A stretch of DNA of 37,067 bases from Alphaproteobacteria bacterium (lineage in GTDB: Bacteria > Pseudomonadota > Alphaproteobacteria > Micavibrionales > Micavibrionaceae). Positions 21,941 to 26,278 of this stretch are shown here, piece by piece. Made by a program: the position numbers and the translations under genes. The notes under the pieces are model-generated. The model was not told where the DNA came from, searched no databases, and worked only from the letters and a program-made list of their open reading frames with translations. Location: assembly GCA_002701555.1 (NCBI GenBank), contig NZVS01000078.1:1-37067 (forward strand), given 5' to 3'. Position 1 is the first letter of the stretch. Every line of letters starts with the position of its first letter.

Positions 21941-22963
21941 TTACCCGAGTGCCAGTTGTGGTTCTTGAGCAGGTGCAGGCGTTCTGGCAGAGGCATAAAC
22001 CTGATCTACATCTTCCTGAAGACTGTCACAACGATTCATCCAACCTCTATAATTTCTTGTGTAAACAGCCTTACCCGTGGCGTTTAGACTTGCATAATGA
22101 TTTCTTTTTAAATCGACCAACTCATTACCATCTGCTACCCCGTCATTTCTGGAGGCTGTAGCAATGTGTTGTCTGGCTTTACCGACACCGGCATTTACCG
22201 CAGTGTCAAATGCAACTAGACGGGCGGCCGGATCAGAAATATTTTCAATTCCTGCCTTATCCCAAAATTCACGCTTATAGAAATCTTTTGTTACTTCAAG
22301 TGCTCCTTCGCGGTCGCCTGATCTCAAAAGACCCATTACTTCATTATATGTTCCTTGGTGGTATTTGGATGCTATACCGAACACTGTGGCTCCCCCGGCA
22401 TCATATTTTCCATCATGCCAACCACCTTCATGAGCCAAAACCTTGTCAAAGGCTTCATCGTAACTACCGTCAAATGCACCGTTTTCTCTGAGCTGAGCAG
22501 CAGAAAGACCTGCAGCGGCAGAAGTTACACCTGTTGCTAGAGCGGCGGAAGTAGAGGCTGATGAAAGGTCAATATCACCATTAGAATCAAGCTCTATACC
22601 TTCCAGATCTTTGATCATTTGCTCGATCTGTTCAGGGTCTAAATTCTGCCCATTCAATTCAGCAGTGGATTCGTAATAATGTCCGAGAAGCATAAGAAGG
22701 ACATAGCCTTCATCCTCGCGCGAAACTTCACGGCCTGTATTTGCGCTTGGCTCCTGAGAATATGGTTTTGCGCCGCTAACCATATTGAAGTTATTTGTAT
22801 TTGTTGCTTCAGCTTCCTGGTTCAAATCCAAAGCACCCTGTCTTGCAGGATTAGAAAATCTCTCTGTTATCCCGTTACCGGAAATACCGCCAGCATTGCC
22901 TATTGCCAATGCTGCGTGGCTGGTAGTGCCTAAGGCTGATGATTTAACTGTTTCTTGTACCAT
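21941..22963 (-). CDS. GH108 N-acetylmuramidase with PG_binding_3-like C-terminus and unknown N-terminal region of about 165 aa
   Basis: FDKVLAHEGGWHDGKYDAGGATVFGI matches the GH108 EGG...D.GG.T..GI signature. C-terminal ...NYRGWMNR resembles PG_binding_3. No signal peptide. Confidence 0.8.
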   Translation of the reverse strand: MVQETVKSSALGTTSHAALAIGNAGGISGNGITERFSNPARQGALDLNQEAEATNTNNFNMVSGAKPYSQEPSANTGREVSREDEGYVLLMLLGHYYESTAELNGQNLDPEQIEQMIKDLEGIELDSNGDIDLSSASTSAALATGVTSAAAGLSAAQLRENGAFDGSYDEAFDKVLAHEGGWHDGKYDAGGATVFGIASKYHQGTYNEVMGLLRSGDREGALEVTKDFYKREFWDKAGIENISDPAARLVAFDTAVNAGVGKARQHIATASRNDGVADGNELVDLKRNHYASLNATGKAVYTRNYRGWMNRCDSLQEDVDQVYASARTPAPAQEPQLALG

Positions 22964-22969
22964 GCTTAT

Positions 22970-22999
22970 ATTCTAGCGTATCTTTCTTAACAAATGCAA
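22970..22999 (-). promoter_or_regulatory. Sigma70-like promoter abutting the GH108 ATG (predicted leaderless)
   Basis: On the minus strand: TTGCAT, 18 nt, TAGAAT, 6 nt (ATAAGC), ATG. No SD. Confidence 0.5.
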
Positions 23000-23031
23000 A
23001 ACAACTCAAAAAATATATATTTTTCAATCTG

Positions 23032-24135
23032 TTAAGATATTACCGGGCCATGGTATTCTGGCGTTGCATTCATACCTTGTTTGTGACCAAGTCCTGCTTG
23101 CTGATATGACTCTCTAGCCTCATTGATGAGACCTTGTCTAACTGAACTATCACCAAGATTCTGGCCCATAGCGCTTGCCGGGCTTACAATCTGATATCTG
23201 CCGTTGCCATCAGCAATTCCTACTTCAAAGTGCAGGTGAGGCCCAGAAGAGCGCCCTGTACTACCACTTTGGCCAATAACTGTGTCCGGACCTACAGTTT
23301 GTCCTTCTCTAACATCAACATCACTCAAGTGAGCGTAACGTGTAAATAAGCCGTTGCCATGGTCTATATCGATGTATTTACCCCATCCGTCAGCATCGTT
23401 TCCAACATTATGTACACGGCCTTCTGCGGCAGCGTAAAGATCGGTACCTGTAGGAACAGGGTAATCCCCGCCTTCATGCATTCGTGATCCACCACGGTGT
23501 ACAATATCCTGGCCTGTGCGATAGTCACCTTTTATAGGGAATTGCAACGTTACATTACCATCTGAAGAGAAAGTGCTTCCACCTTCTATTGAAGGCCCGT
23601 CATGATCATGTCCGGCACCGGCAGCCATACCCGCTCCTGCGACACCAAGTCCAGGAATTAGGGATGAGAACATCTGACCGATAAGACCTTCTATATTCAT
23701 GCCTTCCAGGCTGTTGCCATTTGCCTGACCAAGGCCAAAAACTTCCATAATAATGGTCATGAATATACCCATGCCAATATTCTCGGTTACCATATCGGGC
23801 ATTCTGTCCGCAACTTGCTGAGTGCGTTCTACTGATTCATCTAAAAGTGCTGTTTCTTCAGGTGTCATTTCACGACCCTCTGCGCGAGCATTGGCTTGAG
23901 CCTCTTCGTATGCGCGCTGGCGTAAAGTCGCCTGGTCATGTTCATTATGCCTGTCCATTCTATCATCGCGTAATTGAGCTTCTGCATCGGGCTGTTCGGT
24001 GCGGATAGAAGATTCGGGGGGAGGGCCTGCAACCGCGGTTTCAGGACGAATTGACGCCGCAGGCGGTGCAGCGGCAACTGCTGGAGCAGGTTGCTGTATC
24101 TGTGGTTCTCTTTCTTGTGTTGCTGTTATAGCCAT
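23032..24135 (-). CDS. M23 family metalloendopeptidase with long non-canonical N-terminal region
   Basis: HEGGDYPV (HxxxD) and SGPHLHFEV (HxH) motifs, plus IDIDHGNGLFTRYAHL. The N-terminal ~190 aa are Pro/Ala/Gln-rich, then charged, then one hydrophobic Gly-rich stretch. No Sec signal. Confidence 0.85.
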   Translation of the reverse strand: MAITATQEREPQIQQPAPAVAAAPPAASIRPETAVAGPPPESSIRTEQPDAEAQLRDDRMDRHNEHDQATLRQRAYEEAQANARAEGREMTPEETALLDESVERTQQVADRMPDMVTENIGMGIFMTIIMEVFGLGQANGNSLEGMNIEGLIGQMFSSLIPGLGVAGAGMAAGAGHDHDGPSIEGGSTFSSDGNVTLQFPIKGDYRTGQDIVHRGGSRMHEGGDYPVPTGTDLYAAAEGRVHNVGNDADGWGKYIDIDHGNGLFTRYAHLSDVDVREGQTVGPDTVIGQSGSTGRSSGPHLHFEVGIADGNGRYQIVSPASAMGQNLGDSSVRQGLINEARESYQQAGLGHKQGMNATPEYHGPVIS

Positions 24136-24141
24136 ATTTAT

Positions 24142-24171
24142 ATTCTATATAACTCTTATATTCATTACCAA
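24142..24171 (-). promoter_or_regulatory. Sigma70-like promoter abutting the M23 ATG (predicted leaderless)
   Basis: On the minus strand: TTGGTA, 18 nt, TAGAAT, 6 nt (ATAAAT), ATG. The 10-mer TAGAATATAA is identical to, and at the same offset as, the one in the GH108 gene. Confidence 0.5.
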
Positions 24172-25412: not shown

Positions 25413-25418
25413 ACAATT

Positions 25419-25424
25419 AGTATA
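25419..25424 (-). promoter_or_regulatory. -10-like hexamer abutting the ATG of the 352-aa orphan (predicted leaderless)
   Basis: On the minus strand: TATACT, 6 nt (AATTGT), ATG. No SD and only a weak -35 (ACTAAA at 17 nt). Confidence 0.35.
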
Positions 25425-25525
25425 TGGAAAATAGGTAAAATTTTAGTTAATATTGGTTAACGCATTTAACCCACTGAAAATGCAGTTAAATAATGGGGAT
25501 TTAATAACTTTAATACTTGGAAATA

Positions 25526-26242
25526 TTAAAATGGGGTAGGGCCAGCCAATTCGGGCTTGGGGGCAACATTTGCAAAGGCTTCACGTCTGACTATACCATA
25601 GACGAGCAAAGAAGACATTTCAGGATCGTAACCCTGACCATCGCACATGCTTTCGATTTCGCGAGCAGTAATGCATGGTTTATTGGCCTCAGGCGCGCCC
25701 TGATTAAATAATTCAGGCCTGTTCCGTTGTAAATTTTCCATCATTGAGCCTGCATCTTGAGGTGCGGCGTTTGGATATACACCTAAATCTTCGGGTGTAA
25801 TATCGTATTCATCAATTTTACTGTCTATAGCCTCGGTAATGTCGGGGTTGCGCACATCTATACCTGAATTTTGTTCAAGAGATACAAGGGCTTCCTGTAA
25901 ATCCGCCAATGCTGCCCGACTGAGCGCAAGATTTTGAGGTCTGAAGATCTCTAGCCCTGCGACAGTTGATGCGAAAAGCTTTTGTATTTGGGCCCGTCTT
26001 AAGAAAGCAGCTTTTTCGGCTTCTGTGCCTGAATAGCTTGCGCCAGCTCGTCCTTCGATTGAATGTGAGCCAACAGTGCGCCCCTGTACAACACCGCCTG
26101 AACGAAAGTCTGTGAAGATGCGGCTCCATACATCATTGTTTAGAAGCGACGGTTCACCTTTGGCAACAGCACCCTGCGTTGATAGACGGGTATCCCGCTG
26201 ATCAATCTGGCTTGCATAACTTGTTCGGACAGAATTATTCAT
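25526..26242 (-). CDS. Orphan protein (238 aa from ATG at 26242)
   Basis: ORF with no recognisable domain, signal peptide or TM segment. Start set at MNNSVRT because a consensus -10 sits 7 nt upstream and covers the alternative ATG at 26251. Confidence 0.65.
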   Translation of the reverse strand: MNNSVRTSYASQIDQRDTRLSTQGAVAKGEPSLLNNDVWSRIFTDFRSGGVVQGRTVGSHSIEGRAGASYSGTEAEKAAFLRRAQIQKLFASTVAGLEIFRPQNLALSRAALADLQEALVSLEQNSGIDVRNPDITEAIDSKIDEYDITPEDLGVYPNAAPQDAGSMMENLQRNRPELFNQGAPEANKPCITAREIESMCDGQGYDPEMSSLLVYGIVRREAFANVAPKPELAGPTPF

Positions 26243-26249
26243 AATTTGC

Positions 26250-26278
26250 ATTATAAGGGACGGACGCAGTAAAATCAA
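26250..26278 (-). promoter_or_regulatory. Sigma70-like promoter abutting the ATG of the 238-aa orphan (predicted leaderless)
   Basis: On the minus strand: TTGATT, 17 nt, TATAAT, 7 nt (GCAAATT), ATG. Confidence 0.55.

Follow-up and report, generated by a model that had tools for sequence, protein, structure and literature searches.

Do genes whose -10 hexamer almost touches the start codon give rise to mRNAs that lack a leader? The question is raised by four neighboring minus-strand genes (21941-26242) in a 37,067-nt contig of an alphaproteobacterium of the Micavibrionaceae (NZVS01000078.1), which was analysed at its full length and is called the window below. The four genes, referred to as the hydrolase cluster, encode a GH108 muramidase-like protein, an M23 metallopeptidase and two orphan proteins of 352 and 238 amino acids (aa), and an earlier note made from the sequence had predicted leaderless mRNAs for all of them. 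We consider it probable, at roughly 0.65, that the four genes are separate transcription units with sigma-70-type promoters whose -10 hexamers lie 6-7 nt from the ATG, and that this is the organism's normal expression mode for many genes. The genes and the predicted promoter elements next to their start codons are as follows.

21941..22963, minus strand: GH108 muramidase-like gene, 340 aa; Pfam PF05838 at residues 172-259 (57.3 bits against a cut-off of 21.2)
22970..22999, minus strand: predicted GH108 promoter, TTGCAT (22999-22994)-18-TAGAAT (22975-22970)-ATAAGC-ATG, 6 nt to A22963
23032..24135, minus strand: M23 metallopeptidase gene, 367 aa; Pfam PF01551 (97.3 bits against a cut-off of 28.7)
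24142..24171, minus strand: predicted proximal promoter P2 of the M23 gene, TTGGTA (24171-24166)-18-TAGAAT (24147-24142)-ATAAAT-ATG, 6 nt to A24135
24354..25412, minus strand: gene of the 352-aa orphan, an acidic, coiled-coil protein; open reading frame (ORF) with the deepest RNA contigs of the window
25419..25424, minus strand: predicted -10 hexamer of the 352-aa gene, TATACT-AATTGT-ATG, 6 nt to A25412
25526..26242, minus strand: gene of the 238-aa orphan; ORF with start ATG at 26242
26250..26278, minus strand: predicted promoter of the 238-aa gene, TTGATT (26278-26273)-17-TATAAT (26255-26250)-GCAAATT-ATG, 10 of 12 consensus matches, 7 nt to A26242

Promoter geometry at the four start codons

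Direct reading of the minus strand bears out the described arrangement exactly. A TANNNT -10 hexamer precedes the ATG by 6-7 nt in all four genes, and its first T is located at -12 or -13 from the start codon. In the literature, a TANNNT hexamer that starts about 12 nt ahead of the start codon serves as the computational signature of leaderless genes, which are widespread in bacteria (PMC3160421), and the cluster genes thereby resemble the "TA-led" genes, in which the first T lies 12-13 nt upstream of the start (Zheng et al. 2011, PMC3160421), a criterion equivalent to that of the earlier note; that study is one of genome-wide statistics, whereas here four adjacent genes come with comparative and RNA support. 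Sigma-70-type -35 and -10 elements spaced by 16-18 nt are found at the GH108 gene, the M23 gene (P2 and a distal promoter, P1) and the 238-aa gene, while the 352-aa gene has a -10 hexamer only.

All four start codons are ATG, and none is preceded by a Shine-Dalgarno (SD) sequence, as had been claimed. Specifically, the energies of the duplex with the anti-SD are -0.8 (GH108), -2.4 (M23), +1.6 (352-aa gene) and +1.2 kcal/mol (238-aa gene), compared with -5.8 to -8.2 kcal/mol for the housekeeping genes that the earlier note had named as SD-led (thiolase, sucD, sucC, the TIGR02300 gene and tatA). Pairing weaker than -4.5 kcal/mol is also seen at 19 of the 32 other assigned gene starts in the window, some of which are possibly misassigned, so the missing SD is no distinguishing mark of the cluster. 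Among the determinants of leaderless initiation, Bharmal et al. (PMC8459731) name the identity of the start codon and its accessibility, and the first 50 nt of each of the four putative mRNAs are less stably folded than shuffled sequences (z of +0.84 to +1.44).

The spacers contain only 23-35% GC, and such AT-rich sequence might yield -10-like hexamers near any ATG by chance. Dinucleotide shuffling of each of the four spacers reproduces the geometry in 3.7-11.5% of trials, a single-site chance of 4-11%, and the region has only a modest excess of promoter-like sites (17 against 10.7 +/- 3.3). The joint product for the four spacers, however, is 2e-5, which indicates that the geometry is not an artefact of AT-richness, in agreement with the earlier note. 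Since the geometry is moreover conserved across species at 49-66% protein identity and coincides with the RNA ends described below, chance is a highly improbable explanation. Across both strands of the window, 41 of the 1398 ATG triplets (2.9%) have a near-ATG -10, defined by at least 5 of 6 matches including A2 and T6 and a spacer of 5-8, and seven (0.5%) add a TTGnnn -35 at 16-18 nt, three of which belong to cluster genes. Of about 36 gene starts, five have such a near-ATG -10: those of the four cluster genes and a doubtful one at 4615.

Comparison with relatives provides further evidence. A contig of "MAG: Micavibrio sp. isolate EAC75" matches the window at 99% identity, and the sequence of the window is present in marine metagenomes. 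Syntenic clusters occur in four related genomes (L001/L002/L008 from one genome, L003, L005, and the sister strain L026), always between sucC and the DUF2336-AFG1-tatCBA genes; their gene content is fluid between relatives, and an orthologue of the M23 gene is also present on L027. A genome scan gave three loci. A metagenome scan with the GH108 alignment added two more loci of close relatives, L007 (99%) and L008 (63%), the remaining 17 loci being distant GH108 genes at no more than 38% identity. At the M23 gene, the GH108 gene and paralogous orphans of these relatives, the hexamers and their spacing are kept while the spacer sequences change. The GH108 gene reads TTGCAT-18-TAAAAT-ATAAGC-ATG in L026, TTGTAA-17-TATTTT-ATAAAT-ATG in L003 and TTGCAA-17-TATTTT-GTAACT-ATG in L005; that of L001 differs, its leader being about 30 nt long. 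Both paralogous orphans, L003_251 and L005_241, carry TTGAGA-18-TAAAAT-5/6-ATG, and their spacer sequences differ. In relatives of the 238-aa gene (L003_242 and L001_224), TATAAG or CATAAG is found 6 nt from the ATG, which could equally be an AAGGA SD. No homologue of the 352-aa orphan was found in L001, L003 or L005.

The start codons themselves might be mis-assigned, with the real starts lying downstream behind SDs of their own, and the N-terminal halves of the proteins are indeed poorly conserved and low in complexity. Nevertheless, the GH108 and M23 orthologues align from Met1 (for GH108, with P0003 and L005), and a relative's 352-aa sequence is conserved at the protein level from about codon 14. 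In-frame stops lie from 9 nt (GH108 and M23) to 57 nt (238-aa gene) upstream of the four ATGs, and the next in-frame start is 17-59 codons downstream in the GH108, M23 and 352-aa genes and further away in the 238-aa gene. Each ATG is the first in-frame ATG after the upstream stop, except in the 238-aa ORF, which has an additional in-frame ATG at 26251, within the -10, and a TTG at 26278. Downstream starts are thus scarcely credible, and start codons are fixed for four fast-evolving genes, two of them orphans, that a gene caller might otherwise mis-start. In the GH108 and M23 genes the -10 hexamer TAGAAT (22970-22975 and 24142-24147, minus strand) opens with TAG, an in-frame stop three codons ahead of the ATG, so that the promoter element also closes the upstream reading frame. 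The TAAAAT hexamer of the L026 GH108 gene still begins with a stop. Rfam gave no match within 21500-26800.

RNA 5' ends in marine metatranscriptomes

Contigs assembled from nine marine metatranscriptome runs of one study (X5-X29) were aligned with the window. At an identity of at least 95%, RNA contigs in the whole 37-kb window fall almost exclusively within the cluster (21941-26242), where depths reach 36-50, the sole exception being located at 28860-29114; sucCD, tatABC, glmU and the other housekeeping genes have no RNA contigs at this identity in the nine runs. This near confinement indicates that, in situ, no other part of the window is as highly expressed as the cluster. With one RNA contig outside the cluster, the SD-led genes are unusable as a comparison for 5' ends.

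Unaligned ends of 3-4 letters provide the orientation of the transcripts. About 17 of the roughly 20 RNA contigs with such ends have them at the high-coordinate end, that is, on the RNA 5' side; most consist of exactly three non-genomic letters, and DNA contigs lack them. We infer that the extra letters are a template-switch-type library signature, which marks the 5' ends of RNA fragments and orients the unstranded contigs. Contig X5#15 matches 26075..26242 without a mismatch; its end falls on the A of the start codon of the 238-aa gene and is followed by three non-templated letters. The observed RNA does not reach the in-frame ATG at 26251. Contig X11#7, from a diverged orthologue of the 352-aa gene, begins on the A of the start codon, at 25412, and has three additional letters. 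Its remaining 117 nt encode FAATVDGGF, compared by eye with FAASVDGGFF in the window, a likeness that identifies it as a true orthologue. The RNA 5' ends thus indicate that the 238-aa gene is leaderless, and that the 352-aa gene is leaderless in a relative. DNA contigs from the same waters run across all four ATGs, so the RNA ends there are not assembly breaks, and the probability that two of about 20 fragment 5' ends spread over 4.3 kb would fall on any of the four predicted sites is about 2e-4. The case illustrates that short public metatranscriptome contigs are able to corroborate leaderless transcription in a marine bacterium that is not in culture.

Additionally, no RNA contig lies within 26243-26437, 25413-25525 or 24164-24419 in any of the nine runs. 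It is this absence of RNA from the spacers that points to separate transcription units, rather than terminators, as no intrinsic terminator was found on the coding strand of the cluster spacers.

Several observations weigh against leaderless transcription of all four genes. The RNA ends derive from assembled contigs at a depth of 2-3, probably single fragments, and the libraries do not separate primary from processed 5' ends. The end at 25412 belongs to a diverged relative, and its true position may be as much as 3 nt further upstream; no recognisable -35 is present upstream of TATACT in the 352-aa gene. For the GH108 gene, two contigs end at 22928 and 22930, which is 33-35 nt inside the gene, and X26#6 (97% identity, 22635-23053) spans the ATG and the promoter and extends into the 3' end of the M23 gene; of the 12 strain differences of X26#6, the 11 listed ones are at third codon positions (own count). 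The only 5' end seen for the M23 gene, at 24163, comes from the sister strain and implies a 28-nt leader.

These observations bring in an unlikely alternative, in which the mRNAs are mostly leadered and SD-less, arise from upstream promoters or read-through, and carry next to the ATG a conserved TA-rich sequence that serves as an unstructured, AU-rich initiation region (S1-type binding) and is no working promoter. The M23 5' end at G24163 would place the proximal "promoter" inside the leader, X26#6 crosses the GH108 start, a clear SD is missing from about half of the genes in the window, and initiation on leadered mRNAs that have no SD is frequent in Caulobacter (PMC4117421). This explanation, however, accounts neither for the two 5' ends that coincide exactly with the A of an ATG nor for the conserved -35-like TTGnnn, which keeps a fixed distance of 17-18 nt while the spacer changes. 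Upstream of the two orphan genes, no RNA is seen.

Alternatively, the ends at the AUG could be processing products, for example of endonuclease cuts just upstream, instead of transcription starts. The libraries are blind to the difference between 5'-triphosphate (5'-PPP) and 5'-monophosphate (5'-P) ends, and leaderless mRNAs made by MazF cleavage have been described in E. coli (cited in PMC4117421). The cluster mRNAs indeed resemble the MazF or "stress ribosome" mRNAs of E. coli in that they begin at or near the AUG. In contrast to MazF products, both ends are found at the canonical promoter distance of 6-7 nt from a good -10, no RNA was detected upstream of either end, and nothing indicates cleavage, stress or modified ribosomes. 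We regard processing as very unlikely.

We favor transcription from the promoters next to the start codons. Each gene would form its own transcription unit, initiated from a sigma-70-type promoter with the -10 hexamer 6-7 nt before the ATG, and, by analogy with Caulobacter and other bacteria, ribosomes would bind the 5'-terminal AUG without an SD. The GH108 gene is probably leaderless, with a conserved leaderless promoter that would be supplemented by read-through from the M23 gene. The prediction that transcription starts on the A of all four ATGs therefore holds in part: the two orphan genes agree with it, the GH108 gene shows internal ends and a read-through contig, and the M23 gene gave an end well upstream of its ATG, a type of result that the earlier note itself had named as refuting.

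Predicted interlocked promoters of the M23 gene

The distal promoter region of the M23 gene contains the following elements.

24163..24198, minus strand: predicted distal promoter P1, CTGAAA-16-TATAAT (24198-24171), and RNA 5' end at G24163
24188..24206, minus strand: conserved 19-nt block ATAAGTAACTGAAATTTAA, which covers the P1 -35 and extends upstream of it; no difference between the window, L026 and L027

G24163 is located 8 nt past the P1 -10 and 28 nt upstream of the M23 ATG, and the leader of the P1 transcript is AU-rich and has no SD at a usable distance. Two contigs from two runs of one sample, X11#6 and X5#16, both end at this nucleotide. Their origin is an L026-type strain, with which they share an A>G difference at 24128. 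Since L026 and the window have the same sequence around 24163, the additional letters at the contig ends are non-genomic and the 5' end is real. The M23 gene is thus at least partly leadered.

P1 and P2 are interlocked, the last T of the P1 -10 being the first T of the P2 -35. Between the window and L026 the distal spacer is heavily diverged and contains indels, and the ~90 nt that immediately precede the ATG contain just 2 differences. In the L027 gene, which encodes a 49%-identical M23 protein, P1 is kept as CTGAAA-16-TATTAT and P2 as TTGGTA-18-TAGAAT-6-ATG, with the same 18-nt spacer length and a different spacer sequence; the N-terminal peptide M-x-x-TATQ is conserved as well. From this conservation, P2 may produce a leaderless M23 transcript, such that P1 would yield the SD-less leader and P2 an mRNA starting at the AUG. 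At a protein identity of just 49%, the block ATAAGTAACTGAAATTTAA is still unchanged within a spacer that has otherwise diverged, and it is possibly an UP element or a regulator site.

The pair resembles the tandem-promoter genes reported in general terms in the Caulobacter map, where alternative transcription starts give one ORF both leaderless and leadered transcripts; in the M23 gene, the start of P1 (28-nt leader) would precede that of P2 (0-nt leader) by 28 nt. Unlike in those genes, the interlock and its conservation to 49% protein identity are specific to the M23 locus, and the use of P2 is inferred. One may speculate, with little confidence, that the choice between P1 and P2 sets the translation mode of the M23 gene, leadered or leaderless, within a signal-peptide-less and most-expressed hydrolase cassette of a Micavibrio-like, possibly predatory bacterium.

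As for the proteins, the M23 product is a predicted peptidase, with the metal-binding motifs HEGGD (HxxxD) and HLH (HxH) visible by eye in the translation. Its size is estimated at ~39 kDa, and it has no obvious N-terminal signal peptide and an internal hydrophobic stretch, IGMGIFMTIIMEVFGL. The genome paper of M. aeruginosavorus mentions a ~39 kDa lytic proteinase from M. admirandus and a 40-kDa M23 protein (PMC3189940). The GH108 protein carries its catalytic domain, of predicted activity, in the C-terminal half and matches PHROG endolysin family 315 (1e-23). The 238-aa and 352-aa orphans match no Pfam family above the curated cut-off, no PHROG and no NCBIfam. Inspection by eye, with no predictor used, revealed no signal peptide in any of the four cluster proteins. 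Being strongly expressed in the sea, the cluster would make a sensible subject for expression and lytic assays, provided that its host is truly a Micavibrio-like predator.

Known leaderless genes and further candidate sites beyond the cluster

Leaderless mRNAs are well documented in Alphaproteobacteria. Caulobacter crescentus has 375 of them, corresponding to 9.6% of its coding sequences and including dnaQ, dnaX and hemE, and Sinorhizobium meliloti has 171 (PMC4117421); in Methylorubrum, 7% of mRNAs are leaderless (PMC9320726). An SD is present at only 24.6% of initiation sites in Caulobacter, where leaderless, non-SD and SD mRNAs are equally well translated in normal growth (PMC4117421). Given these precedents, the cluster is an instance of a known arrangement that is common in the class, and no new mechanism is revealed; of most note are the interlocked, conserved promoters of the M23 gene and how strongly the hydrolase cluster is expressed in situ. 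The likeness to the leaderless mRNAs of Caulobacter and S. meliloti comprises the transcription start on the A of the AUG, as indicated for the two orphan genes, the -10 about 7 nt upstream, the lack of an SD and the unstructured 5' end, and the host is, like Caulobacter, an alphaproteobacterium with few SD sites. In contrast to the maps of those two species, the present case is known from a handful of metatranscriptome fragments of an uncultured organism. Furthermore, Caulobacter promoters are of a GC-rich type, whereas those of the cluster are E. coli-like and AT-rich.

As judged from sequence, the near-ATG promoter geometry is not particular to the hydrolase cluster. In relatives, scpA has TATGAT-5-ATG in L001 and TAAAAT-6-ATG in L003, and gene 6913 of L001 has TTGTAA-17-TATTTT-TAAGC-ATG. 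The window contains two further leaderless-like starts:

7029-8381, minus strand: glmU, TGGACA-18-TAAACT-6-ATG, A at 8381
33239-34768, minus strand: 509-aa orphan, TTGACA (perfect -35)-17-TATAAC-9-ATG, A at 34768

The idea of a shared special expression mode, relying on specialised ribosomes or stress, finds no support: weak SDs are widespread in the window, scpA shows the same geometry, and the leaderless mRNAs of Caulobacter belong to normal growth.

The part of the genome around the cluster is rich in orphan proteins. Large ORFs of 394, 422, 491, 850 and 509 aa near the cluster, at 19466-21887 (plus strand), 27709-29184 (minus strand) and 30686-34768 (minus strand), have no Pfam or NCBIfam match, and the 491-aa orphan (27709-29184, minus strand) is expressed. 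This orphan, on the strand opposite to sucCD, and a 149-aa ORF lie between sucC (26438-27643, plus strand) and sucD (29793-30674, plus strand). A similar insertion, a 609-aa gene, occupies the gap in L001, and just an 81-aa gene is found there in L003. Such a split of sucCD is unusual, the pair being normally adjacent.

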